Of a stretch of DNA of 37,172 nt, positions 4,852-26,103 are shown piece by piece; positions within the stretch are counted from its first letter, which is position 1; every line of letters begins with the position of its first letter. The position numbers and the translations under genes were made by a program. Source of the DNA: Candidatus Pacearchaeota archaeon (lineage in GTDB: Archaea; Nanobdellota; Nanobdellia; Pacearchaeales; GW2011-AR1); contig JAGVXK010000002.1 in NCBI GenBank assembly GCA_018303825.1, positions 1-37,172 of the forward strand, given 5' to 3'. Under the pieces are notes generated by a model. The model was given only the letters and a program-made list of their open reading frames with translations, was not told the DNA's origin and searched no databases.

Positions 4852-6291
4852 ATGAAAAACAGCAGGAAAATTGCGATTGTTCTTTCAATAATTTTAGTTG
4901 CCATCTCACTTTTATTAGTTGTTGGTGCTGTTAGCTCAGGGTTTATAGATATAACAGTTGGAAATGAGGGATTCCACGATTATTCTTGCAATAATCCTAT
5001 TTCGGGAGTGCAATTCCACGACAAAGGAGGAAGCGGAGATAATTATGTCTCAGGATTATATTGTTCTAATTCAAATCTTGATATTTCCAGTTCAAATAGG
5101 GTAGATTTGGATCCTTCTAGAAGTTCTTCAGGGTTTTATAATTATTCTTGCCAAGATTCTACAGTTATAGGCGTTAATTATCACGACAAAGGAGGAAGCG
5201 GAGATAATTATGTCAATCAGCTTATATGCGGACGGGGCAAATTTAGCTATAATAATGTAGAAGGAATAGATTTAACATTGAATGGGGGCGGATTTTATGA
5301 TTTTTACTGCGCAGGAGATAAAGTATTGGTGGGAGTGCAATTCCACGACAAAGGAGGAAGTGGAGATAATTATGTCAATAAAATATATTGTGCAAGCTTA
5401 AATGTTTCTGCACCCGAAGACAACGGGAACGGCACGGGTGAAAATAACGAGACAAATCAAACCCAGCAGTTAAATATTACAGTTAATTATCCATTGAATG
5501 GAATGGTTATAGATTCAAATGTATCTTCTTTGTTCTTGAATTACACAGTGCAGGGAATTCCTAATTCATGCTGGTATGATTTAGACAGCACCTTGAACAA
5601 TCTTCCTGGTTGTGTTGGCATGTCAATTTCAATGACAAATGGGACTCACGAATTGCGAGTATATGCAAATAATTCCCAAGGTCAGGTTTTCAACAGTTCG
5701 TTAATTAACTTTGTCTTTAATCTTTTTGCTTCAGACAATGAAGGAAATGGAACAGATGGAGGAAATAATCAAACGAATCAAACAGGCAATCCATACATAA
5801 AGATAATTTACCCTCTGAATAATTCAGTTTTAAATGTATCAAATATAAACTTAAAGTTTATAGCAGCTAATGTTTCGTCGTGCTGGTTTAATCTTAATTA
5901 CGGAAACAATGCCTCAATAGTGCAGTGCCAAAATACAAGCTTCAGTGCTGGAAACGGAAGTTATATATTACATTTGTATGCAAACAATTCCATTGGACAG
6001 ATTAGTTCAGATTCTATTTATTTCACAGTCAGTTTGCCGGGAAATTCTGGAAATGGTGGTGGCAATGGCGGGGACGGCGGAGGCAGAACAAGAAATGGAG
6101 CAAGAGTTATTAATGTGTCTGATCTGGACGATTCTGATAAAGTAACTTATTCAGTAGATGATTATCTCCCAGAGGAAAAACCAGCCGTTACAAATGAATC
6201 TGAATTAAATGTTCCTCTTTTGCTGTCTTTGATACTCCTTATTTTATTGATAATAATCGCTATTATACTTATTTATATTTTGAGAGCTTAA
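4852..6291 (+). CDS. Cell-surface protein: signal peptide, 3x Cys-bounded repeat domain, 2 Ig-like domains, C-terminal TM anchor
   Basis: GV(Q/N)(F/Y)HDKGGSGDNYV x3; two YPLN...CW...YANNS units; many NxS/T sequons; hydrophobic C-terminus. Confidence 0.8.
   Translation: MKNSRKIAIVLSIILVAISLLLVVGAVSSGFIDITVGNEGFHDYSCNNPISGVQFHDKGGSGDNYVSGLYCSNSNLDISSSNRVDLDPSRSSSGFYNYSCQDSTVIGVNYHDKGGSGDNYVNQLICGRGKFSYNNVEGIDLTLNGGGFYDFYCAGDKVLVGVQFHDKGGSGDNYVNKIYCASLNVSAPEDNGNGTGENNETNQTQQLNITVNYPLNGMVIDSNVSSLFLNYTVQGIPNSCWYDLDSTLNNLPGCVGMSISMTNGTHELRVYANNSQGQVFNSSLINFVFNLFASDNEGNGTDGGNNQTNQTGNPYIKIIYPLNNSVLNVSNINLKFIAANVSSCWFNLNYGNNASIVQCQNTSFSAGNGSYILHLYANNSIGQISSDSIYFTVSLPGNSGNGGGNGGDGGGRTRNGARVINVSDLDDSDKVTYSVDDYLPEEKPAVTNESELNVPLLLSLILLILLIIIAIILIYILRA
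5017..5376 (+). repeat. Three in-frame 33-bp near-identical repeats (5017-5049, 5182-5214, 5344-5376)
   Basis: cacgacaaaggaggaag(c/t)ggagataattatgtc; copies 1 and 3 extend to 45/46 identity. Confidence 0.95.
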
Positions 6292-10889: not shown

Positions 10890-10984
10890 TAGCTTTAGTA
10901 GTAAATGAGGCGCGTTAGCGCCGATTGCGCCCGACATCATTATCTTATACACTGACATTTGTGAGGTTTTATTGGCTAAATGTT

Positions 10985-11004
10985 CGCTTAAGATTGATTA
11001 AACG
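10985..11004 (-). repeat. Core site S1: cgcttaa-gattga-ttaaacg (spacer inverted relative to other cores)
   Basis: 7-bp inverted arms, 6-bp spacer whose reverse complement starts TC like the other cores. Confidence 0.7.
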
Positions 11005-11067
11005 TAGCCAGAAATCTGTCCTGCGGATTTTATTTTCAATAAAACTCTCAATCTGCTTCCTCAGCTC

Positions 11068-11127
11068 CGCTTAAACCTTTTTCCAAACAACAGACGCGCT
11101 TTGCGCCTAATCTAGTTTAAACGAAAT
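11068..11127. repeat. Fold-back unit B1 (third arm 11068; core cgcctaa-tctagt-ttaaacg 11104-11123)
   Basis: Part of 135-bp repeat 10996-11130 matching 14439-14573 with 4 mismatches. Confidence 0.9.
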
Positions 11128-11250
11128 TGCCCTTTTCAAAATAGTGCGTCAGATACCAAAGGGGGTCGGCTCGAGGTCGCTTTCAGCGACAGATAGTTCT
11201 TCGCTGAGGCGAAGAGAAATAATCAAGATAATCGGAATTAGAAACAATAA

Positions 11251-11736
11251 TCATTTATATTTTTCAGAAACATTTTCTAAAGTGGAATCCAAGTTATTTC
11301 TCAATTTTTCAGATTCTAGCCTTAAAATTTCTTTTTTTGGCAAAAAGACTTTTCCAACATTATTTGTCCCATATTCATATAGGGGTCTTTCGCTGTCTTT
11401 TGACTGCAAGACAATACTTTCAACATTATTTGTTCCAGCAGAAGGCATTATAGCACTTCTAACTTCGTTAGTATTTCTTCCTAAGTAATTTCCACCAAAA
11501 ACTAAAGCAGAAGATAATATTCCATATGTTAACATTCTTTTAGCAAACCTACTAGGTTCTTTAATTAATTCAGCACAACCACCACCACCAATAACACCAC
11601 CAACAACACCACCAACAACGATATATGGAATAAATTCAGGATTATAACAACTTAATGCAGTTAATCCCGCGCCCGCTAGAATTCCAGATGCTGTAGCAAT
11701 TCTACTTTCTAATTTTAATCTTTGCTCATTTTCCAT
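11251..11736 (-). CDS. Membrane-anchored hypothetical protein (cargo)
   Basis: 161 aa, Gly-rich hydrophobic N-terminal half; own promoter at about 11758-11772. Confidence 0.6.
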   Translation of the reverse strand: MENEQRLKLESRIATASGILAGAGLTALSCYNPEFIPYIVVGGVVGGVIGGGGCAELIKEPSRFAKRMLTYGILSSALVFGGNYLGRNTNEVRSAIMPSAGTNNVESIVLQSKDSERPLYEYGTNNVGKVFLPKKEILRLESEKLRNNLDSTLENVSEKYK

Positions 11737-11926
11737 AGTTTTTAATTAAAAAAGGAGTATATAAAACTTTCTATTGTTACTACTAACTAAAGACACTGTA
11801 AACTTCTCGCCGACCCCCATAAACAATAGTACGCAGATACAAAGAGCAATTACGCTTCGGAAGCATCTTTTCAAGCAGATTTTGGTCCACGAGGCTTTTT
11901 ATGCGCACCCGTGCCTCTAAAGAGGA

Positions 11927-12065
11927 CGCTTAATCTCTGCTAAAAGGCACATTCCTTGATTTATCCTAAATCACTTTTCTCGTAAAAGACGGAATATGAC
12001 CTAACTTTCAATAATTCTAAGTTAAAAATAGCTTTGAAAGTTCTTTTAGCCTGAACGATTAACCG
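11927..12065. repeat. Fold-back unit AC2 (cgcttaa-tctctg-ctaaaag ... cttttag-cctgaacga-ttaaccg)
   Basis: 11929-12010 is 81/82 identical to 14308-14389; 12034-12062 is identical to 14416-14444. Confidence 0.9.
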
Positions 12066-12129
12066 CAGTTTATCTGTGCGGAGTTTTTGCAAAAATCAGG
12101 AAAAATTCTCAAGCCCAATTCCCTCGTTC

Positions 12130-12187
12130 CGCTTAAGCAATTTCAGAAACAAAACGCTATTCGCGTCTAATCGCGCTTAAGCGAAAT
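12130..12187. repeat. Fold-back unit B2 (core cgtctaa-tcgcgc-ttaagcg 12164-12183)
   Basis: Perfect cgcttaagc/gcttaagcg terminal stem; homologous to B1, B3, B4. Confidence 0.8.
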
Positions 12188-12233
12188 TTCTAACAAATTC
12201 AAAGATATCGGAAGTTGTTCACCCACCCAATAG

Positions 12234-12247
12234 GAAAGGTTTTTAAA
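12234..12247 (+). promoter_or_regulatory. Archaeal BRE-TATA promoter
   Basis: gaaaggtttttaaa about 30 bp upstream of ATG 12277. Confidence 0.6.
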
Positions 12248-12276
12248 GAACTTCCCCCTCGAGGAAATAACTTAAG

Positions 12277-13092
12277 ATGGGAAAGAAAATAATTCTACCG
12301 ATTGCTTTCGCTTTAATTCTTTTGGGCGCTGTTTTTGTTTCGGCATTGAATCTGCAAGATTTTACTAATTTACAACTCGGCAACAATCAGGGTATTGTGG
12401 AAAGTCCGAATGGACACGTTACTATTAATGTAGTAAAGGGATGGAATGTTCTACCTCTTAAGTTTATTTCTGAGGCATCGGGGAGATATTGGGGCAACTA
12501 TAAAGAAGGACAAACATGCAGTCAAGATGTTTTTCAGAATGTTTGGTATTATTCTCCTGAAAGGGCAAGTTATTATCACATCCCAGTAATAGATGATTGG
12601 AGTGCTCCTAAAACTAGAGATAACGCCTTTCTTTTGGGCGAACTTCAAGGGAAGTATTATCATGTCTTTGCAGGAAGCGCTTGGATGTATTCGCCGAAGA
12701 ATTGTACATTAGAAGGCGACAATGGTGTTGATTTAGTCTCTCGCAGTTATGGAAGCGAAGATCAAGATATATCTTATTCGTATGGCGATCTAATTTTGAA
12801 GGCTGGATGGAATTTTGTTCCAGTCGATTATCTTTGGTCGGCTATGGATAAGTCTTTTGCAGAAGTGTTCGCTGGGTGTAATGTAGAAAAGTTTAATATT
12901 TGGGATAGTCAAAAACAAAAATGGTTATTTTCTATATCTCAAAACGTGACGAGTGCTTCTTTTGCTTGGAATGAAGAAATAGCACCTCCTATGATTTTTA
13001 CAACGTTAGTCGTTAAAACTGGAAATGATTGTGCTCTGGCTAAAAATGTTATTGATGGTCAGACAGACTCAAACCCTCCAGCATTACCGTAA
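12277..13092 (+). CDS. Secreted/surface protein with two GWN motifs, ends in PPALP
   Basis: Signal peptide; VKGWNVLP and LKAGWNFVP; 4 Cys. Confidence 0.7.
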   Translation: MGKKIILPIAFALILLGAVFVSALNLQDFTNLQLGNNQGIVESPNGHVTINVVKGWNVLPLKFISEASGRYWGNYKEGQTCSQDVFQNVWYYSPERASYYHIPVIDDWSAPKTRDNAFLLGELQGKYYHVFAGSAWMYSPKNCTLEGDNGVDLVSRSYGSEDQDISYSYGDLILKAGWNFVPVDYLWSAMDKSFAEVFAGCNVEKFNIWDSQKQKWLFSISQNVTSASFAWNEEIAPPMIFTTLVVKTGNDCALAKNVIDGQTDSNPPALP

Positions 13093-13093
13093 A

Positions 13094-13264
13094 ATGGAAG
13101 AACAGACAACAGAAAAAAAAAGTAAGGCATGGATTTGGATTTTAATAATTATAATCTTAATAGCAATCGGAGTTGGAGTCTACTTCTGGCTAACAAGCGG
13201 AAGCGGGGGAAGTTCTATAATTGGGGGAAGTTCAATACCTCAACCACCAGCCCTACCAAACTGA
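13094..13264 (+). CDS. Small single-TM protein ending IPQPPALPN
   Basis: Start re-called at ATG 13094, 1 bp after upstream stop; 56 aa. Confidence 0.7.
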   Translation: MEEQTTEKKSKAWIWILIIIILIAIGVGVYFWLTSGSGGSSIIGGSSIPQPPALPN

Positions 13265-13388
13265 AAAACCTTTCTGATTAAAGTTCCCACCCACAACTTC
13301 CTCAAATAGTTAGAAATTACACTCGGGAAGGCTTTTCGAACACAGATAAACACTCGAGGATTTTCGTAATCAGCTCGAGCCAAAGGCA

Positions 13389-13531
13389 CGGTTAATCTCA
13401 CATAAGAGATAAATTCCTTAATTATTCCATAATTGTTTTTCTTCGTGAAAAAACGGAATTTAGTCTTAGTTTTAGCTTATATGATTTAGATATTAATGGC
13501 TAAAACCACTTTTATTACGAACGATTAAATG
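13389..13531. repeat. Fold-back unit AC3 (diverged copy)
   Basis: Same stems as AC2/AC4 with compensatory changes, conserved TCC loop and acgaacgattaa end. Confidence 0.75.
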
Positions 13532-13616
13532 AACTTGAAATTTGCTTCTTAATATTATAAACTAAATAGGAAGTTATTTTCAGAATGAAAATAATTCTCA
13601 ATCTCTCTTCTCGTTA

Positions 13617-13672
13617 CGCTTAAGCCTTTTTCAAAATCAGACACAAACCGTTTAATCTCGCTTAAACGTAAT
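13617..13672. repeat. Fold-back unit B3 (core cgtttaa-tctcgc-ttaaacg 13649-13668)
   Basis: tacgcttaagc/gcttaaacgta terminal stem. Confidence 0.8.
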
Positions 13673-13810
13673 TGACGGGAATACTAAACAAATTTATGAT
13701 TTGCATTCCCCCGACCACCCGCCCCTAAATAGTCGCCTTCGGCGATTATACAAAATAATTATCAGAAAACAAACGGGAAGGTGCGCCAAACAAAGTAACT
13801 AAGAAAATAA

Positions 13811-14104
13811 TTAGGGGTGCGGAACTGATGATATTGATTCAGTTTCAAATCTCTTTTTGAATTCTGGATTGGTCACAAGAAGTTTTTCCATCTCAGACCT
13901 TTCCCTAGTCCTTCTCTCATTAATTTTATCGTTAATTATTCTACCCCCAGCATAAAGTGCAATTCCAATCCAAGATTCTGATTTGTCAAGAGCAAGGACT
14001 CCAATTCCACCAACCTCTAAAGCATAACAAGTTATTTTTACAAAACCTAAGTCACGAAATGTTCTTCTGTGAAAGCTGTAGTCATCATATAGTTCATCTG
14101 CCAT
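13811..14104 (-). CDS. Small membrane protein (cargo)
   Basis: 97 aa, two hydrophobic segments; promoter agaaagctttaaata upstream. Confidence 0.6.
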   Translation of the reverse strand: MADELYDDYSFHRRTFRDLGFVKITCYALEVGGIGVLALDKSESWIGIALYAGGRIINDKINERRTRERSEMEKLLVTNPEFKKRFETESISSVPHP

Positions 14105-14305
14105 GAAATTTTATGAAAAAACTAATATTTAAAGCTTTCTATTTGTTACTATTATCAAGTTAAATCAGAAACAAAATGCACCTTCCCACCACCGCAAATC
14201 ATAAATCCAAACTCAAAATAGCCGTCAATTCCACTCGAAGAGAGATTCACGAACAAATATTCAAGACACGAGGGGCTTTAGTATCCCACTCGTGCCCATT
14301 CGGGT

Positions 14306-14447
14306 CACTTAATCTCTGCTAAAAGGCATATTCCTTGATTTATCCTAAATCACTTTTCTCGTAAAAGACGGAATATGACCTAACTTTCACCTTATACTAA
14401 CAATTCAATAACGGGTTGAAAGTTCTTTTAGCCTGAACGATTAAACG
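14306..14447. repeat. Fold-back unit AC4
   Basis: Near-identical to AC2; shares 21 bp and 31 bp exact blocks with AC5. Confidence 0.9.
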
Positions 14448-14510
14448 TAGCCAGAAATCTGTCCTCCGGATTTTATTTGAAATAAAACTTTCAATCTGCT
14501 TCCTCAGCTC

Positions 14511-14570
14511 CGCTTAAACCTTTTTCCAAACAACAGACGCGCTTTGCGCCTAATCTAGTTTAAACGAAAT
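14511..14570. repeat. Fold-back unit B4 (core 14547-14566)
   Basis: Identical to B1. Confidence 0.9.
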
Positions 14571-14682
14571 TGCTGATTGTGGGCATTTCAGTCAGACAGA
14601 GACACGTCGGGGGCTTGGGTGCTATCGCACAGAGAGCTTCGGCTCACGCCGAAGGAAATACCATTATCTCTTTGCGATTAAA

Positions 14683-15648
14683 TCACTGAGTTGGAATAGT
14701 TTCTATTTTGTGATATTTTGAAAAAGTAATGATCTCTATTTTCTTAAAAATAGGGAATTTAGTCTTAAGACTTTTAACAAATTCTACTAATTTTTGTTTA
14801 TTTTCTACCTCCAAATCTAATTCAAAATCCCAATCAGATATGGTATAATCTATAAAGATAACATTGCGATTTTGCTTACAATATGCCTCAAGCTCTTTGA
14901 TCTGATTAGTATTACTTAATTTAATGTTCAGTTTAAAATATTGATAACTGATTTTATTTAAGTTTATATTTACCCTATACCCTAAGATAATTCTCTTCTT
15001 TTCTAGTTGTTTAATCTTGTGTATTACTGTTCTGGGGGGAATTTGAGTTTTCGCAGATATTTCTAGAGCAGACATCCGACTATTTTTAACGAGAAAGGAA
15101 AGGATTTTTTTATCTCCCTCGTCTATCTTGATTTGATTGGATTGCCCAACAGATTCGGCACCCTTTCTGGGAATATCTGATAAATAATTTCTTTTGAAAT
15201 GGTCAACCCTTGAAATAATGCTTATCTGCTCATTTTCAATAAACTTCCGATATTTAGATTTGAATTGATTCCAGAAATGATAAAATTCTTGAATATTTTT
15301 AACGGTAGCCATAAACATCGCGTCATAATTTGCTTCGAGTTCAGCTACAATAGTACATATATTTTCTTTTATTAATTCATTTAGGATCTTCTCTTCTTCT
15401 AATGGATCGGTATTAATAAAATTAAAATAAACTCGAAATGCGATGTATCCTAATTTAGATACATCGATTGAAGGGTAAAATCCAAGAATAACTTTCTCCT
15501 CAATCAATCGTTTTAATCTAAATTGGAGAGTGTTTTGGTTAATTCTTAATCTTCTTGCTATTCTTGATATTGGCTGCCTAGAATTCTCGTCTAGCTCGGC
15601 TATGAGCCTCAAGTCTGTTTTGTCAGGGAGAGTGTATTCTTTAATCAT
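14683..15648 (-). CDS. Tandem-duplicated Lrp/AsnC-family transcriptional regulator
   Basis: Two HTH-RAM repeats (DKTDLRLIAELDENSRQP; DEGDKKILSFLVKNSRMS). Confidence 0.88.
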   Translation of the reverse strand: MIKEYTLPDKTDLRLIAELDENSRQPISRIARRLRINQNTLQFRLKRLIEEKVILGFYPSIDVSKLGYIAFRVYFNFINTDPLEEEKILNELIKENICTIVAELEANYDAMFMATVKNIQEFYHFWNQFKSKYRKFIENEQISIISRVDHFKRNYLSDIPRKGAESVGQSNQIKIDEGDKKILSFLVKNSRMSALEISAKTQIPPRTVIHKIKQLEKKRIILGYRVNINLNKISYQYFKLNIKLSNTNQIKELEAYCKQNRNVIFIDYTISDWDFELDLEVENKQKLVEFVKSLKTKFPIFKKIEIITFSKYHKIETIPTQ

Positions 15649-15739
15649 GTTGTTATAATGGCATTAGTATATATAAATATTGCTTTTTTAACAATAAATA
15701 GACAATAAAGTAAATATACTTTACAAATATGCATATCTT

Positions 15740-16648
15740 ATGTTATCGAGAGAATTGCCTCTTTTAGAGAGGCATATAAACTTTGAGAATGAGCAACTGC
15801 ATGTGCTTACGGCTCTTTATGGAGCAGTCGTGGGTGCGGTTAGCGAAGCAGACATAGAGTTATGCAAAAGCATTGAACTAATGAAATCTTCAACTCTAAT
15901 TTTAGACGATTTCCTAGATGAATCTCCAAAAAGAAACGGTATTGCTTCTATATATGCCGAGCAAGGGGCAAAGACAGCAGTTCTTACTGCTGAGCTTCTG
16001 AAGGGGGTGGCTTCTTCTAAACTAATAGAAATATTAAGGACTGATGCTCGTAATTATGATAAGCTTGCATTTTTGCATGTTTTTGAGGATACTTATGCAA
16101 CTATCTGCAGGGGACAGATGAGAGACATTTCGTTAGCAAAAATACCAATCTTAGAATATGTTCCTTCTGAGAAAGATTATTTTGATCTTATTGGAGACAC
16201 TTCTGCATGCTATATCCGAGCACCACTGCTGATGGGGGGAATAGTTATGAACTTACCTAAAGATGTGCTTACATCTCTTGGCGACTTTGGAATAAATATA
16301 GGACTTGCTTATCAGATAAGAGATGATGTGTTAGATCTTGTTGGAGATCCAGAGAATATGGGCAAACCCTTTGCTGGCGATATCAGAGAAAAGAAAAAGA
16401 GGTTGCCGCTCATACATCATCTTTCTGTTGAACCAAGGGGGCTTGTAAGAAAGATTATGACTAAACCTTGCTTAAATGACGAAGATGTTATAAAAGTAGT
16501 TGAAGAGCTAAGGCGCACAAGATCTTTGCAGTATTGTGTGGATAAGATCTTTTATTTCAAAGAAGAGGCAATGGATTCTTTATCATATAAAAATAATGAA
16601 TTGGCAGCAATAGCAGAATTAATCACTAATTTTCAAGGAGGTATATAA
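15740..16648 (+). CDS. Polyprenyl-diphosphate-synthase-fold protein (atypical)
   Basis: DDFLD and YQIRDDVLD Asp-rich motifs, GQMRD, MGKPFAGDIREKK; GKxxR motif absent. Confidence 0.8.
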   Translation: MLSRELPLLERHINFENEQLHVLTALYGAVVGAVSEADIELCKSIELMKSSTLILDDFLDESPKRNGIASIYAEQGAKTAVLTAELLKGVASSKLIEILRTDARNYDKLAFLHVFEDTYATICRGQMRDISLAKIPILEYVPSEKDYFDLIGDTSACYIRAPLLMGGIVMNLPKDVLTSLGDFGINIGLAYQIRDDVLDLVGDPENMGKPFAGDIREKKKRLPLIHHLSVEPRGLVRKIMTKPCLNDEDVIKVVEELRRTRSLQYCVDKIFYFKEEAMDSLSYKNNELAAIAELITNFQGGI

Positions 16649-16649
16649 A

Positions 16650-16838
16650 ATGGGAGAACTAATCCTATCCTATATAGGCAAGGAAAGAGTTCAGCTGCCA
16701 GATAGCTTGCAACCTTTGCAACCTTATTTATCTGCATGCTTTCAAGCAGATGAGGTAAGAAGATTGTTTGATGGGGCAGGCGATCTTCAGAGAATCTTGA
16801 ACTCTTATAAACCTGTAGAATCTAGAGGATCTAAATAG
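16650..16838 (+). CDS. 62-aa hypothetical peptide coupled to the prenyltransferase-like gene
   Basis: 1-bp gap; GGAGG Shine-Dalgarno upstream. Confidence 0.55.
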   Translation: MGELILSYIGKERVQLPDSLQPLQPYLSACFQADEVRRLFDGAGDLQRILNSYKPVESRGSK

Positions 16839-16849
16839 AAGGCAAGAAG

Positions 16850-16984
16850 ATGAATCAATTCACCATAACAAAGAAAATAGCAAAGCATGGAAAACAAGCA
16901 ATAATTGTAGTTCCAAAGCTATTAGAGGAACAGCTTAAACCAGGCACAATAGTTGAACTGAAAATAGAGATAATTAATCAATAA
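16850..16984 (+). CDS. 44-aa AbrB-like (DUF2080-like) protein, not in ORF track
   Basis: MNQFTITKKIAKHGKQAIIVVPKLLEEQLKPGTIVELKIEIINQ. Confidence 0.65.
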   Translation: MNQFTITKKIAKHGKQAIIVVPKLLEEQLKPGTIVELKIEIINQ

Positions 16985-17040
16985 CAGAGTGGGAAATTGA
17001 CTTCCAGAAAGCTTAAAAACTTCGCTTATTTGGAATATTT

Positions 17041-17175
17041 ATGGAAATGGTAAAGATACCAAAGGACGAATATGAGAAGCTGAAAATGCAAGCAAATGTA
17101 GACATGGATTTATTAAAACAATTAGTTAGAAGTGTGAAAGACATCAAAGAAGGTAGAGTAATTAGGGTTAAATAA
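17041..17175 (+). CDS. 44-aa putative antitoxin, not in ORF track
   Basis: MEMVKIPKDEYEKLK...SVKDIKEGRVIRVK, resembles small archaeal RelB-type partners; gaaagcttaaaa promoter upstream. Confidence 0.6.
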   Translation: MEMVKIPKDEYEKLKMQANVDMDLLKQLVRSVKDIKEGRVIRVK

Positions 17176-17179
17176 AAGA

Positions 17180-17521
17180 CTACGATTCTTCATCTTGTGA
17201 TTTGTTTTCTCTGACCAATTTTTCTATTTCATCTCTAAAAAATTCTAAGAAAAGTCTAATTGCGTTGATTGTTTTTTGCTGATCTTTTTTGCCACTTATC
17301 GCAACAAGATAAACTGCCTGCAAATCTTCATAGACTAAGTAATAAATTCTGTAATTTTCAAATCTTGATTCTCTGAACCATTTAGTTCCAAGAGGATTTC
17401 CATATTCAGGATTGTCTACTAATTTATCTTCTATTTTGTCAACCCTATCCTGAATTGATTTGTCATATTTAGCTATCTCCTCTTGAAAACCGACAGAACG
17501 AAACACCTTATACTTTTTCAT
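17180..17521 (-). CDS. RelE/ParE-superfamily toxin
   Basis: Start re-called at ATG 17521; NPEYGNPLG, FRESRFENYRIYYLVY, KKDQQKTIN. Confidence 0.72.
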   Translation of the reverse strand: MKKYKVFRSVGFQEEIAKYDKSIQDRVDKIEDKLVDNPEYGNPLGTKWFRESRFENYRIYYLVYEDLQAVYLVAISGKKDQQKTINAIRLFLEFFRDEIEKLVRENKSQDEES

Positions 17522-17818
17522 GTGAATTATAGGAAACACCAGATTAAAAATCTTCTTTTTCAGAAAAAGAAGCAAAAACGCGCCCCCGACAGATACAAAT
17601 GAAATGCCCCAGAGACATAAGATTCTCAGCAATTACGCAAAGAGCCCATTCTCGTGAGGTTTAGCTTACTCGAGACTCTTAGTTCGTAGCTCGAGGTCTT
17701 TCAGACTCGCCTAATCTCTGCTAAAAGGTAAATCTCTCAATTACTCCGTAATTGTTCTCTTAGTTCGAAACGAGATTTAATCTAACTTTCACCTTATACT
17801 AATTAGCTTTAGAAAAAT

Positions 17819-18022
17819 TTAATTTGCCACAAGTGACTTAAGTGCAGAGGATGGCAAATGCTCGCTTGCATCAAGTATCTCAATGCCCAAAACTTTTCCA
17901 CTTTTGTCCAAATCTACGTTAACAGAATCATTTAGAGAGATTGTCTCCGCTACTTCTCCATTTCCTATTTCTTTGAAATAGACATAGGCTGCATCAGCTT
18001 CTTTATCAAATTCAGTTCTCAT
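17819..18022 (-). CDS. DUF2283 family putative antitoxin
   Basis: FDKEADAAYVYF...VDLDKSGKVLGIEILDAS. Confidence 0.88.
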   Translation of the reverse strand: MRTEFDKEADAAYVYFKEIGNGEVAETISLNDSVNVDLDKSGKVLGIEILDASEHLPSSALKSLVAN

Positions 18023-18024
18023 CT

Positions 18025-18231
18025 TTACATGACACTGACCACCTTTATATATTTATCTTTACCAGCGTAGACAACTTTTACCCTCTTTTCAGGATACTTC
18101 TTAATTGCTTCTGTTTTCTTGCCTTTTTGGACAGTATAATCAGGCATTTCGATAGTTTCTTGAACCTGCTTGAAAGTTATTGCCCTTTCAGCCATTCTCT
18201 TTTTTGCGTGGTCTGTTAGTATGATAGTCAC
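18025..18231 (-). CDS. DUF4258 family putative toxin (BrnT/RelE-like fold)
   Basis: LTDHAKKRMAERAIT; canonical pairing with DUF2283; non-ATG start. Confidence 0.8.
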   Translation of the reverse strand: MTIILTDHAKKRMAERAITFKQVQETIEMPDYTVQKGKKTEAIKKYPEKRVKVVYAGKDKYIKVVSVM

Positions 18232-18351
18232 TTGCTTAATAGTTTTGTTTAGATTATAAATTTTTCTTCGCTTTCGTTTTACGATTGGGTTGAAAGTTCT
18301 TTTAGCCTGAACGATTAGACGAAAAGTAAACCTCTTTAGGGATTTGATAAA

Positions 18352-19274
18352 TTATAAATGCAATATCTTTTCAGCATCGATTACCATAGAAAGTGCTGTT
18401 GGACCTGGACCAGCTCCAGGACCAATTAAGACATAACTACCATCTTTCCCAAACTCTCCCTCTGAAGTTAGAACTGCATTATTTACTCCGCTCGGAACCA
18501 ATTCTCTGAATAGAGGATTACCCTCTATGTTTCTTCTCTTGTAATTGAAACAATATATCTCCTGTTTGAAGCTTCTCGAACTAACCTTCTCAATTGATTC
18601 AATTCAATTGGCTCGACAATAATATCTTTAGCCCTTATTCTTTCTCGAGTTAGATTACAGACATTGAACAAAATAGAAGTTTTCATCGGAACATCGCCGG
18701 TTGCTTCTTTGTTTATAACCTCTAAGGGATGTTTCGCACCAGGTTCTGCATAACCAAGCCTCTTTGTTTCTTCGACCACCTCGCCGAGGCTTCTTCCTCT
18801 AGATAATCCCTCAAAAATGTAGTTTAATGTGCCATTGATGACCGCATGAATTTCTTGAACTTGTGGTCCAATTCTTTCTTGTAAATATCTTAATAATCTT
18901 GAACCACCACCAACAGTGGCACTATATCCTATCCTGTGACTTCTTACGGCTTCCTCAAGCTGTGAAAAGTAATTAGATAATGCCCCTTTCTCGCATGTTA
19001 TAATCGGAACACCCGCTTCTAAGGTTGAAGTTATGTATCTAAGCGCAATTTCTCCAGTATCTAAGGTAGGTATAGCAAGAAAAACCGCATCCAGCCCTCT
19101 GACATGCAATGCGTAATCCTCTATCTCTGCTAATTTTGTCTCGCCAGATAAATCTTGGAAGATTCCTTTTGAACCAGCAACCCACTCTACACCCCACCCT
19201 CTAGACTTAGCCTTGTGATAAACCTCTGAACCAATCGTCCTCTTACCTACTATTCCTACATTAACTTTTGCCAT
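18352..19274 (-). pseudogene. hom: Homoserine dehydrogenase, frameshifted
   Basis: 19274-18525 has TCEKGAL, SATVGGG, NGTLNY, LGYAEP; after TAG at 18525 a second frame continues SGVNNAV...GPGAGPGPTA to TAA at 18352. Confidence 0.75.
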
Positions 19275-19279
19275 TAAAA

Positions 19280-19337
19280 TTAAGCTACATCTGCAGTTTA
19301 AAAACCTATCAGAAGCATGTCTAATCTCGCTTAGTAC
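19280..19337. repeat. Degenerate fold-back unit B5 (core tgtctaa-tctcgc-ttagtac 19318-19337)
   Basis: Spacer identical to B3; left arm ttaagc lies 5 bp from the hom start codon. Confidence 0.55.
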
Positions 19338-23235: not shown

Positions 23236-24249
23236 ATGGGCTTGCAGATAGGGGACATTGTTCCAAGAAAACAGCTTAAGTTTGAGGAACTGAAGGGAAA
23301 GGTAGTTGCAGTAGATGCTTTTAATGCTATTTATCAGTTCTTAAGTTCAATAAGGCAGCCGGATGGTACTCCCTTAATGGATTCCCAAAGGAGAGTTACT
23401 TCACATTTATCAGGGTTATTCTATAGAAATATTGCTTTGCTTTCGGAGGGAATGAAGCTCATTTATGTTTTTGATGGGGAATATCATGAATTAAAGGGAA
23501 AGACACATGACATAAGAGATGAAGCAAAGGAAGAAATGAAGGCAAAATATGAGGAAGCTAAAGATGAGGAAGATATTGAAGGAATGAGAAAATATTCTTC
23601 AGGATTTAATAAATTAACAAAGGAAATGATAGAGGAAAGCAAGGAACTTTTGCAGGCAATGGGCATTGCTGTTGTGCAGGCTCCTGGAGAGGGGGAGATG
23701 CAGGCTGCTGAACTTGTTAAGCAAGGAATAGCATATGCTGTTGGAAGCCAGGATTATGATGCACTTGTTGTCGGCGCAGATAGATTAATACAAAACTTGA
23801 CATTGGCAAGGCAGAGGAAGACAAGAAGCGGAATGATTTACATTTCTCCGGAGATGGTTGAGCATAATAGGGTTTTGAATGAGCTTGGAATTGACCATGA
23901 CCAGCTTATATCATTGGCGATTTTAGTTGGAAGCGATTTTAATCCGGGAGGAGTTAGAGGGATAGGTCCAAAAAAAGCCATTATTCTTGTGAAACAGAAA
24001 AAATATCCTGTTGAAATATTCAGGGAATTGCAGGAGCAGGGAAGGCTTGATTTCAACTGGCAGGAAGTATTTGAAATATTCAAAAAGCCAAATGTTTCAA
24101 AGGAAAAAGTTTCTTTTCCTAAGTTCAATAAGGAAAGAATAATTGATCTTCTTGTCAAGAGGCATGAATTTTCCCTTGAAAGGGTGAATAAGCAGTTTGG
24201 CAAATTAAATGAAGCCAAGAAGAGCTCCGGACAGAGCAAGCTGTTTTGA
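23236..24249 (+). CDS. fen: Flap endonuclease 1
   Basis: MGLQI, AVDAFNAIYQFLSSIRQPDG, APGEGEMQAA, SQDYDAL, GSDFNPGGVRGIGPKKA, QSKLF PIP box. Confidence 0.97.
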   Translation: MGLQIGDIVPRKQLKFEELKGKVVAVDAFNAIYQFLSSIRQPDGTPLMDSQRRVTSHLSGLFYRNIALLSEGMKLIYVFDGEYHELKGKTHDIRDEAKEEMKAKYEEAKDEEDIEGMRKYSSGFNKLTKEMIEESKELLQAMGIAVVQAPGEGEMQAAELVKQGIAYAVGSQDYDALVVGADRLIQNLTLARQRKTRSGMIYISPEMVEHNRVLNELGIDHDQLISLAILVGSDFNPGGVRGIGPKKAIILVKQKKYPVEIFRELQEQGRLDFNWQEVFEIFKKPNVSKEKVSFPKFNKERIIDLLVKRHEFSLERVNKQFGKLNEAKKSSGQSKLF

Positions 24250-24250
24250 T
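24215..24250 (+). repeat. 36-bp direct repeat, copy 1 (fen1 3' end)
   Basis: ccaagaagagctccggacagagcaagctgttttgat; 35/36 identical to 25384-25419. Confidence 0.95.
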
Positions 24251-24263
24251 ATGTGCTTTTAGA

Positions 24264-24365
24264 TTAAAGACAAACGTCTTAATTAAAATAAGTCAAATGT
24301 CTTAATAATAAATAGGAAAGTATTTAAAGACAAACGTCTTAATTAAAATAAGTCAAATGTCTTAA
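24264..24365 (+). promoter_or_regulatory. Two 42-bp direct repeats (24264-24305, 24324-24365) with AAGAC-N4-GTCTT palindromes around a BRE-TATA
   Basis: Exact duplication with period 60; gaaagtatttaaa at 24316-24328. Confidence 0.7.
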
Positions 24366-24367
24366 CG

Positions 24368-24778
24368 ATGGAGAAGGAAGAATTAAACGAGAAGGATGAG
24401 GTTATGGATGAGATAGAATCTTCCTTAAAGGATCCGAGAGGTTTGGCAAGTCATCAAAAGAGGCTGGCTTTTTGCCTCTCTCTTGGTATAACTAACTTGA
24501 TTGAAGAATATCTAAAAAAGAAAAATGTGCTGAAGCAAGGGCACAGAATAGACCATCAATGGTTTAAGAGGAAAAAGGATAGGGTTAGGGAGATTTTGTC
24601 GAAAAAGATAACTTCTTCTTTAGAATCCTTAGATAAATTAGACTTGTTGTTTGAAGTTGCTTTTAAAATTGAATCTAAAAGAAATGATTTAGCATATGGG
24701 GGATCGGTTAATGAGGAAATTTTGAAAAATTTGATTGATGAATTTTTAAATGCAAAGAAAAGGATTGAAAATGAATGA
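24368..24778 (+). CDS. HEPN-like protein (putative toxin)
   Basis: Helical; RNDLAYG RX4(H>Y) variant; overlaps MNT start. Confidence 0.6.
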   Translation: MEKEELNEKDEVMDEIESSLKDPRGLASHQKRLAFCLSLGITNLIEEYLKKKNVLKQGHRIDHQWFKRKKDRVREILSKKITSSLESLDKLDLLFEVAFKIESKRNDLAYGGSVNEEILKNLIDEFLNAKKRIENE

Positions 24779-25373: not shown

Positions 25374-25383
25374 ATTTTAAAAT

Positions 25384-25419
25384 CCAAGAAGAGCTCCGGA
25401 CAAAGCAAGCTGTTTTGAT
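25384..25419 (+). repeat. 36-bp direct repeat, copy 2
   Basis: ccaagaagagctccggacaaagcaagctgttttgat. Confidence 0.95.
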
Positions 25420-26103
25420 TTATGATTTATCTTTATATGATTCTAGGTCTTTTTTTGTTACTTTTGCATCAGTGCGCAGGATTTGCCTGTCCCTTTCTGC
25501 CTGTTCTTTTGTAGCGGCTTCCTTTGACTGCTTTATTTTTTGCTCAAATGATATTCCCAATCTATGAAGTATGATCGTGATTACTATTGCCACAACTACA
25601 CTTATCCATAGAATCCAAGTATTATTTATCACAAATGTGAGCATATCTACTGCTCTTTTTATAGTTCCAGAAAGACCTATCAATGAAGCAACTATAAATG
25701 CTCCTAGGATTCCAAATAATTTTCCTTTAAATAATACTTCTGCTATTGGCTGGAGGAAGACAAAGAGGGAAATCCATATCACTATTGCAAAGAAGAACGC
25801 CCAGGAAAGAGCATATTCAACTCCTAGAACTGCTTTGAGGAAAGGGTTTATTGAAATCAGGAATCTTTGGATTGGTTCGGCAATTGCATTTTTATCTATT
25901 ATCTGATTCCATTCCCTTTGGAGGTATTTTGTTTTTATATCTTCAATGTTTGTGGGATTTGGGATGTTTTCAGGGTTGAATCCTGTCTGAGTTTGGATTG
26001 CATCATCCACTGTTTCTGCTATTGCCAAATGAGAGAAATAAGTTATTGAAAATATAGAAAATACTAAAAGTATTAGGAATAGAATCTCTTTTTTCATTAA
26101 CAT
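25420..26103 (-). CDS. Multi-pass membrane protein (distant member of cluster family)
   Basis: Signal peptide, about 3 TMs, charged coiled-coil-like C-terminus. Confidence 0.75.
   Translation of the reverse strand: MLMKKEILFLILLVFSIFSITYFSHLAIAETVDDAIQTQTGFNPENIPNPTNIEDIKTKYLQREWNQIIDKNAIAEPIQRFLISINPFLKAVLGVEYALSWAFFFAIVIWISLFVFLQPIAEVLFKGKLFGILGAFIVASLIGLSGTIKRAVDMLTFVINNTWILWISVVVAIVITIILHRLGISFEQKIKQSKEAATKEQAERDRQILRTDAKVTKKDLESYKDKS

Follow-up and report, generated by a model that had tools for sequence, protein, structure and literature searches.

Co-oriented gene cassettes with folded, noncanonical sites in a Pacearchaeota genome: a tentative integron-like array

How do archaea with very small genomes acquire and exchange accessory genes? 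In DPANN archaea, which are host-dependent and have tiny genomes, the gain and exchange of accessory genes are poorly understood. The locus considered here lies in a 37,172-nt stretch of DNA from a Candidatus Pacearchaeota archaeon (contig JAGVXK010000002.1, positions 1 to 37,172; hereafter the window), which belongs to contig C18 of a 0.8-Mb genome of 35% G+C (G000); a second array of the same kind is present on contig C22. An initial annotation, made from the letters of the window alone, described ten 20-bp sequences, each an arm, a 6-bp spacer, and a second arm, alternating with cargo genes, and read them as Xer/dif-like recombination cores of an integron/pdif-like gene-shuffling platform. 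We favor, with a probability of somewhat under one-half (about 0.47), the reading that positions 10979 to 19337 form an integron-like array of four to five accessory-gene cassettes with noncanonical folded sites, the mechanism of which we infer.

Sequence inspection located all ten 20-mers on the plus strand (Table 1), each of them between open reading frames (ORFs) as had been described, and the extension of the right arms of B1 to B4 to TTAARCGWAAT is correct. The site at 19318 lies 44 nt upstream of the start of hom (19274). The extended motif is confined to the array and well in excess of chance, with CGNYTAA-N6-TTAARCG occurring five times in the genome, always in the window. The pattern YTAATC-N4-HTAA occurs nine times in the window compared with 2.0 ± 1.5 times in shuffled sequences, and all nine matches fall within 10988–17724, eight of them on the plus strand. 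Seven further matches lie on the minus strand of C22 between 26008 and 32418 and form the second array, which starts directly after the stop codon of gyrA. By inspection, the 12-mer TAATCTCGCTTA, common to 13653 and 19322, has one further copy in the genome, in the C22 array. The proposed connection to dif through the geometry TAA-N6-TTA did not hold: 42 occurrences were found against 32.5 ± 6.2 in shuffles, 8 of 100 of which reached 42, a count not above chance in such AT-rich DNA.

The listed sites are pieces of a larger repeat, an intergenic noncoding module of ~270 nt. Its order is a C site (RYTTAATCTCTGCTAAAAG), small hairpins, a box that we call D4, ~100 variable nt, the box CCGCTTAARC, and, at the module end, a B site of the form CGYYTAATC-NNN-YTTAARCG-AAATTG; the stretch with this last box and the B site is referred to as the c-unit. 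D4, a 32-nt box (GTTGAAAGTTCTTTTAGCCTGAACGATTAAAC), is the most conserved box, is absent from the ten listed sites, and is the pairing partner of the C sites. In the B sites, as at the start of the array, two 7-bp arms are inverted around a 6-bp spacer; when extended, they match by inspection at 6–8 of 11 positions. The C sites have no inverted right arm, CTAAAAG and ATAAGAG not being inverted copies of the left arms. All four C–D4 units of the window are on the plus strand, and their starts are 1462, 917, and 3402 nt apart. Neither Rfam (at gathering thresholds and at E ≤ 1) nor ARAGORN gave any match in the array, and the sites are thus not captured by existing Rfam models.

The C–D4 unit is a Y-shaped fold of ~145 nt in which the C site is the 5′ strand and D4 the 3′ strand. 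At its base, CGCTTAATC-TCT-GCTAAAAG of the C site pairs with CTTTTAGC-CTGAAC-GATTAAACG of D4, giving two short paired arms (TTAATC/GATTAA and GCTAAAAG/CTTTTAGC) around an unpaired center of TCT opposite CTGAAC; the branched interior is variable and includes a hairpin in which AACTTTCA pairs with TGAAAGTT. For the five complete copies in the genome, RNAalifold gave a fold of 47 pairs, and compensatory double changes were seen in 18. A covariance model (R1) was built from the unit and run on 151 genera sampled from the same family. In an alignment of 35 copies from 16 genomes, 90.7% of cells were paired, compared with 38–51% when the partners were slid by one to three columns, a figure favored by the fact that the alignment was fitted to the R1 model, the margin nonetheless being very large. 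In the same 35 copies, compensatory changes occurred in 44 of the 47 pairs, and none of 500 shuffles reached any of these measures. The helices contain 42 G·T plus T·G and 55 A·C plus C·A combinations and hence no G·U excess, whereas a control set of acceptor stems from 31 tRNAs of the same genome gave 10 and 0, respectively. The folding energies of the two strands are about equal, with the minus strand slightly better. The lack of a wobble excess is what one expects of folded DNA, or of a structure needed on both strands, and not of RNA.

Pairing with distant partners extends to the B sites. Across eleven B units of four genomes, YTTAARCG (the right arm) is paired with CGNTTAARC, a box farther upstream, with covariation at two positions (G-C/A-T and C-G/T-A/G-C). 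In seven of these units, the CGYY of the left arm forms the 3′ side of a short GC hairpin whose sequence varies. The C site (CGCTTAA-TCTCTG-CTAAAAG) and the reverse complement of D4 (CGTTTAA-TCGTTCAGG-CTAAAAG) are likewise paired inverted copies, ~110 nt apart. Because every arm is a helix strand with a distant partner, the listed sites are not self-contained duplex palindromes like dif, and their description as independent Xer/dif cores is not supported: the C arms pair with D4, and the B arms pair with the upstream box or belong to the GC hairpin.

The genes themselves are enclosed by pairing. In all eight cassettes of the two arrays, the DNA after B, which starts with AAATTG, is complementary in interrupted segments to the DNA after the gene or genes, which ends with CAATTA, and in a matrix of flank pairs the cognate pair was best in every row, except between homologous cassettes. 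A second gene position is the loop of the AACTTTCA/TGAAAGTT hairpin, occupied in the window by a DUF4258/DUF2283 toxin-antitoxin (TA) pair (17819–18231, minus strand) and on C22 by an NYN-domain gene. A third lies inside a c-unit, where hom is found between the first 24 nt (18322–18345) and the degenerate B remnant at 19318. To our knowledge, genes held in loops of conserved stems have no described counterpart. Flank duplex energies calculated for both strands gave no usable signal when compared with gene orientation; the minus strand gains spurious G·T pairs because the flanks are C-rich on the plus strand.

The covariance model revealed the spread of the fold. R1 matches were found in 24 of the 151 genera, often with several copies per genome, and the model was required because a BLAST search of one module against 60 relatives found almost nothing. 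Within an array the matches are all on one strand, plus in the window and minus on C22, and the same is true of arrays in the genomes G069 (contigs C7, C1, and C3), G135 (C25), and G093 (C10). The site family therefore recurs in arrays of many related genera, and cassettes recur with different neighbors, as the initial annotation's idea of a shuffling platform would have it. The ParE cassette (16994–17567), which is part of a 3-kb composite in the window, is separate in G135, with its own D4, c-unit, and B-like site, and is also present in G069 and on C22; both it and the unit with the TA pair in its loop were found in G135 and G069 beside different neighbors. C–D4 unit 4, with the TA pair, is 81% identical to positions 5646–6251 of G135 locus L061, exactly from TAATCTC to GATTAG. 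The arrays are located at different chromosomal places in different genera, one in G069 lying after fen1.

Exchange of parts over evolutionary time can be read from the modules. Among nine copies in the genome, the three module parts assort independently: copy M3 combines the C–D4 type of M1 (89%) with the c-unit of M0 (97%), N3 the C–D4 type of M4 with the c-unit of M2 (89%), and N1 the C–D4 type of M2 with the start of the c-unit of M4. In M3, N3, and N1 the identity switches at GATTA of D4; switches where C begins or at AAATTG, where B ends, are less frequent. In metagenome contigs retrieved with a 21-mer of D4, the series D4, c, B, and 5′ flank is contiguous, and so is the 3′ flank with C–D4. 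From these boundaries, the commonest unit appears to run from just after one GATTAA through c, B, flank, gene, flank, and C–D4 up to the next GATTAA, ending in D4, an arrangement that would correspond to an integron cassette, in which attC is 3′-terminal and crossover takes place in the 3′ box. The 6-bp spacer of the listed sites, earlier proposed as the exchange point, is not where the commonest boundary of exchanged units falls; that boundary is the GATTAA end of D4.

Cargo also changes inside constant flanks. The flanks of cassette 3, as far as its innermost stem (GGGAAGGTGC/GCACCTTCCC), enclose three unrelated cargos. In the window the cargo is the 97-aa ORF, on C22 it is a different ORF, and metagenome contig L109 has a membrane protein of 116 aa in this place; a fourth cargo, a TrmB-like gene, follows a related 5′ flank in G135. 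Only the coding part differs in L109, because the promoter-like motif beside the stem is retained. Such exchange could equally be ordinary recombination between paralogous cassettes.

Both arrays of the genome begin with AATGTTCGYTTAAG..GATTAA. The window array, the C22 array, and one array of G093 share AATGTTCGNTTAA, then 4–8 nt, GATTA(A), and a c-unit, and they lie beside unrelated chromosomal genes. The right ends are ragged: C22 has a cassette without a C–D4 unit, and in the window hom sits in a truncated c/B unit. As a separate observation, the sequence GTTCGYTTAAG, common to both array starts, is also present in two conserved intergenic elements of ~100 nt (C2:2706 and C11:9189), which read, on the minus strand of C2:2660–2790 and C11:9130–9260, GTGATAAA..CGAYGATAAAC..AAAGTTCGYTTAAG..TCATAAAATAYTGA..TTAGYCATCAC. 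They look like a different small element, perhaps a protein-binding site or a small RNA of the C/D-box kind, and no link between them and the arrays was established.

In the mechanism that we propose, a site-specific enzyme acting on folded single-stranded C–D4 DNA would exchange strands at or next to the GATTAA box, and cassettes would thereby be stacked in a single orientation behind a simple primary site (AATGTTCGCTTAAGATT followed by GATTAA). By pairing with each other, the complementary flanks on the 5′ and 3′ sides would close the gene into a loop, so that the B unit and the C–D4 unit come together. The arrays in this genome may be sedentary relics.

The initial annotation proposed that XerA or another tyrosine recombinase acts in trans. 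The genome encodes only two proteins of the PF00589 family, at C4:19089–19910 (273 aa) and C5:17582–18421 (279 aa, next to EF-1α). Both are Xer-type, with a SAM-like N-terminal and a catalytic domain, and are too short to hold an IntI-specific domain; they are encoded on contigs other than those of the arrays, and neither adjoins a unit. In four other genera (G011, G036, G093, and G111), an Xer-type gene and units of a sister subtype, the boxes of which read AGCAACA...GATGTTAG, are divergent and 0.3–2.3 kb apart. In a tree of 21 proteins, the four array-adjacent Xers form one clade (support 88/97), the C4 protein groups with what is apparently a housekeeping set found once per genome (97/99), and the C5 protein lies on a long branch that is not part of the array-adjacent clade. 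By analogy with the sister subtype, an Xer-type tyrosine recombinase is the leading candidate for the enzyme; the link is one of analogy because G000 and G069 are without the array-adjacent clade. Just upstream of the array-adjacent Xer gene, inverted repeats are present at 440–520 of L085 (G011:C52; AACGGATATT..AATATCCGTT) and at 2300–2370 of L087 (G036:C7; ATGGATATG..CCATATCCAT), in both cases beside a conserved TATATAAAGGTTACTATA promoter-like box. These repeats are candidate primary sites of those arrays, unlike the AATGTTCG start site of the window.

A number of observations weigh against the integron-like reading. The sequence on both sides of each array is known, and no recombinase is encoded within 10 kb of either; no R1 unit lies beside the C4 or C5 Xer genes even with filters off. 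Neither of these two proteins belongs to the array-adjacent clade, and G069, which has the most TTAATC-type units, is also without that clade. The boxes CTTAATC/GATTAAAC fall outside the integron consensus. The switch points coincide with the most conserved boxes, and homologous recombination between repeats could yield the same mosaic. Flanks common to unrelated cargo are the reverse of the gene-plus-attC linkage of integrons, and the cargo ORFs, about half on each strand with no orientation bias, have their own promoters. It is difficult to envisage how, in archaea, single-stranded DNA would pair over distances of 0.3–3 kb. The start motif AATGTTCGNTTAA..GATTA has only three matches in 401 genomes, all at array starts, and a reversed-pattern control also gave three matches in the 401, so that the count alone means little and the position at array starts is what counts; the 401 genomes hold no further copies as empty target sites. 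Population look-ups with three proteins returned 13–19 contigs each, from several samples and studies, and revealed no cassette turnover among public assemblies: the order is the same throughout, and the assemblies that were aligned at base level match at 100% across the two arrays. These assemblies are one clone and are therefore uninformative on turnover, either way. A metagenome search for the syntenic locus through its PurA-like neighbor found no relative.

Several of these points would follow directly from an alternative that we consider improbable, although it survives best among the rivals: a passive scaffold of palindromic repeats (insulators, terminators, or protein-binding cruciforms, similar to REP/BIME or Correia elements) that spread by duplication and whose cargo is swapped by homologous recombination at conserved boxes, promoters, and flanks, with no dedicated enzyme. 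The absence of a linked recombinase, the arrays that are static in every assembly, the unrelated coding sequences inside identical flanks with a shared promoter motif, and the location of the switch points at C, D4, and B, which are the longest conserved words, are all consistent with it. A passive scaffold does not account well for the strict co-orientation within every array, for an elaborate structure kept by compensatory change across 24 genera, for arrays that start at a shared short site beside unrelated genes, for the homology of transferred units that ends exactly at TAATC and GATTA, or for the dedicated Xer clade that adjoins sister-subtype arrays.

Less probable again is mobility of the IS200/IS605 "peel and paste" type with passenger genes (PATE-like) or of the REP/RAYT type, in which an HUH Y1 transposase would insert DNA 3′ of GATTAA and each GATTAA end would become a new target. 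This would explain the hairpins, the co-orientation, the fixed target word, and the lack of terminal inverted repeats and target duplications, and the genome does encode a stand-alone HUH Y1 (IS200-like) transposase of 145 aa (C17:12254–12691, in the region C17:12180–12730, equivalent to 2680–3230 of L141). The gene is flanked by hairpins with identical TCTTG loops, CCCTATGG-tcttg-CCATAGGG and, at the right end, CCACGAGG-tcttg-CCTCGTGG, and its left flank reads TTGATTAATCGTT. The right hairpin resembles the CACGAGG..CTCGTG hairpins that precede C–D4 units in all subtypes, the likeness being a 7-nt word only. Of the 24 genomes with R1 matches, 13 have a Y1 gene, as do 34 of the 127 without, a weak association among related genomes that are not independent. 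No Y1 gene was found in G069 (8 units, 91% complete), G093, or G111, and none lies in or beside any array retrieved. The GATTAA word is a strand of a large branched stem, unlike the IS200/IS605 cleavage sites, which lie outside simple hairpins. A second IS200 fragment (C14) is unrelated in DNA to the C17 copy, the ends of which are not definable by comparison. Two further observations concern the C17 locus: the sequence beyond the right hairpin includes a 10-mer, TTGAAAGTTC, also present in the D4 box, and an IS6/IS240-type DDE transposase is encoded 1 kb downstream of the Y1 gene.

The literal duplex model of the initial annotation, in which the ten 20-bp sequences are Xer/dif-like cores of pdif-type modules moved by XerA on double-stranded DNA, is highly improbable. 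The inverted 7-bp arms and 6-bp spacers of the B and start sites, a strict pattern unique in the genome to the array, some similarity switches at the B end (AAATTG) and the C start, and the two Xer-type genes are in its favor; against it, each arm shows covariation with a distant partner instead of with the other arm, the C right arms are not inverted copies, the main boundary, D4, is a half-site only, TAA-N6-TTA is not enriched, and the sites are all direct, not the inverted pairs that a pdif module requires. Least probable of all is a structured noncoding RNA, transcribed from the plus strand with its folds acting as RNA and the genes looped out, which would suit the very strong covariation, the single orientation per array, and the long-range stems around kilobase loops (usual in RNA, the processing stems of rRNA being an example), and which we rank low because the helices have no wobble excess (42 vs. 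55, against 10 vs. 0 in the tRNA control), cargo lies on both strands, and no Rfam model matches, the two strands moreover folding about equally with the minus strand slightly ahead.

Under the integron-like reading, the array in the window can be divided into the parts collected in Table 1.

Table 1. Parts of the array in the window, from left to right
Feature	Position	Strand	Basis
Left end, simple site AATGTTCGCTTAAGATT followed by GATTAAACG (listed site 10985)	10979–11004	+	Homology to internal modules from GATTAA (10996)
c-unit type alpha, box CCGCTTAAAC, B1 (11104–11123), ends AAATTG	10996–11130	+	97% identical to 14439–14573; box/right-arm pairing
Cassette 1: 5′ flank, ORF, 3′ flank with hairpins	11118–11926		
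C–D4 unit 1, C site 11927, D4 12031–12065, Y-shaped	11924–12066	+	R1 152.5 bits; covariation
c-unit type delta with box, B2 (12164–12183)	12067–12190	+	Contiguous with next flank in metagenome contigs L113 and L125
Cassette 2: 271-aa secreted/membrane ORF (12277–13092, +), small ORF to 13264 (+), own inverted flanks	12178–13388		
C–D4 unit 2, C site 13389, D4 13497–13531	13386–13532	+	Type II, compensatory changes vs. unit 1
c-unit type beta with box, B3 (13649–13668)	13533–13675	+	89% identical to C22 26155–25894
Cassette 3: 97-aa ORF (13811–14104, −) within nested stems	13663–14305		
C–D4 unit 3, C site 14306, D4 14413–14447	14303–14448	+	
c-unit type alpha with box, B4 (14547–14566)	14449–14575	+	
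Cassette 4, composite, closed by AATTGCTGA paired with TCAGCAATT	14561–17707		
C–D4 unit 4, C site 17708, D4 18287–18321	17705–18321	+	Split in AACTTTCA/TGAAAGTT loop
Right end: first 24 nt of type-gamma c-unit, hom (18352–19274, −), degenerate B remnant (19318–19337)	18322–19337		

Cassette 1 carries a glycine-rich, membrane-like ORF of 161 aa (11251–11736, minus strand) with no Pfam match, and its flanks pair in a cassette-specific duplex (AAATTGCCC..GGGGGTCGGC with GCCGACCCCC..GCAATTA). The 3′ end of C–D4 unit 2, at 13532, reads GAACGATTAA, and the nested stems of cassette 3 are AATTGACGG/CCGTCAATT, TTTATGATTTGC/GCAAATCATAAA, and GGGAAGGTGC/GCACCTTCCC. The composite cassette 4 encodes an Lrp/AsnC-like regulator (14683–15648, minus strand), a polyprenyl synthase (15740–16648, plus strand), one 62-aa and two 44-aa ORFs (plus strand), and a ParE-like toxin (17180–17521, minus strand). 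A promoter-like motif, TTTAAAGCTTTCTATTTGTTACTA, lies upstream of several minus-strand cassette genes (11737–11790 and 14105–14160); it was also seen outside the arrays, at C17:13624 and C19:38404, and is probably a common strong promoter or 5′ leader. In hom, 69 nt are missing at 18526–18530 in comparison with four other assemblies of the same population (L016 18029–18097), and because of this the 331-aa ORF is broken into one of 249 aa; the missing segment is either an assembly error or a real deletion.

Elsewhere in the window, a 48-nt direct repeat (24212–24259 and 25381–25428, 90%) brackets a small island after fen1, and a 60-nt tandem duplication is present at 24264–24383. The 3′ end of fen1 may be a recurrent insertion spot, since a C–D4 array of G069 sits directly after the fen1 homolog. 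Three copies of a 76-nt repeat, ~165 nt apart (5004–5406), lie inside a 479-aa ORF (4852–6291), the product of which is predicted to be an internally repetitive protein.

If the integron-like reading is true, a cassette platform present in about one-sixth of the sampled genera of the family would be a main route of gene flux in these organisms. It would represent a second answer, of independent origin, to the problem for which bacteria have integrons, with folded DNA sites largely overlooked by standard integron searches and without an integron integrase. If the arrays are only recombining palindromic repeats, they are a curiosity of genome structure. A further claim, which we regard as possible and rather doubtful, is that Pacearchaeota have a distinct gene-capture system with sites not homologous to those of integrons, in which a branched folded site is combined with a B unit, cargo is held in loops closed by cassette-specific stems, and movement depends on a non-IntI enzyme, either Xer-type or an HUH Y1 acting on single-stranded DNA.

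Among known systems, IS200/IS605 elements, PATEs, and REP/RAYT elements have single-strand, hairpin-dependent mobility, and the cleavage sites of IS200/IS605 lie outside simple hairpins. The arrays share with them a fixed short target word, co-orientation, the lack of terminal inverted repeats or target duplications, and the presence of a Y1 gene in the genome; they differ in their large branched folds, in the absence of Y1 from several array-bearing genomes, and in containing no transposase. In Acinetobacter plasmids, pdif modules have inverted XerC/D-XerD/C duplex sites at their two ends. Like the cassettes described here, they are small accessory modules, often of TA genes, bounded by Xer-like sites, whereas in our arrays all sites are direct and belong to folds. 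The attP of the Vibrio phage CTX is a folded single-stranded site with two inverted dif-like half-sites that is used by XerCD, and IMEX are Xer-exploiting elements integrated in tandem at dif. The C–D4 unit resembles this attP in its inverted half-sites ~100 nt apart, its forked hairpin, and its mismatched center; repeated integration of such elements gives tandem arrays, and the sister-subtype arrays lie beside Xer-type genes. In contrast to CTX and IMEX, the cargo consists of single genes and not phage genomes, and no Xer gene is linked in this genome. Because two separate array loci exist in one genome, neither locus need be dif.

Of the known systems, the integron comes closest, in particular in its sedentary chromosomal arrays and CALINs (clusters of attC sites without an integrase), and of the integron/pdif-like platform first proposed it is the resemblance to integrons that is supported, on the strength of co-oriented accessory-gene cassettes and one conserved site family; the pdif part falls away. 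The likeness comprises small co-oriented accessory cassettes rich in TA genes, a simple site at the array start, and a unit boundary at the 3′ box. The candidate recombination site is an imperfect hairpin with two paired boxes and an unpaired center, its structure kept while its sequence varies, and at least two co-oriented sites lie <4 kb apart; many integron arrays are also without an adjacent integrase. The differences begin with the enzyme, there being no IntI beside the array and the recombinases of the genome being Xer-type proteins of 273 and 279 aa that are unlinked to it. The boxes are (G/A)CTTAATC and GATTAA(A/C)C as opposed to RYYYAAC and GTTRRRY, with no AAC...GTT on either strand; the sister subtype of other genera has GATGTTAGTT and GTTAAAT boxes. 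The site is branched, ~145 nt long, and preceded by extra hairpins, and it is accompanied by a second folded unit (box plus B), by cassette-specific flanks that enclose the genes, and by genes in the loops of site hairpins. Cargo lies on both strands with its own promoters, in contrast to the mostly promoterless, co-oriented cassettes of integrons. By standard criteria, archaeal integrons were reported in 75 of 6718 genomes, and CALINs of two to three attCs are listed for a few Pacearchaeales metagenome-assembled genomes (PMC9668308, Ghaly et al. 2022). The R1 fold, in 24 of 151 genera, is far more prevalent than archaeal integrons so defined (PMC9668308), which suggests that most R1 units are not already annotated as attC.

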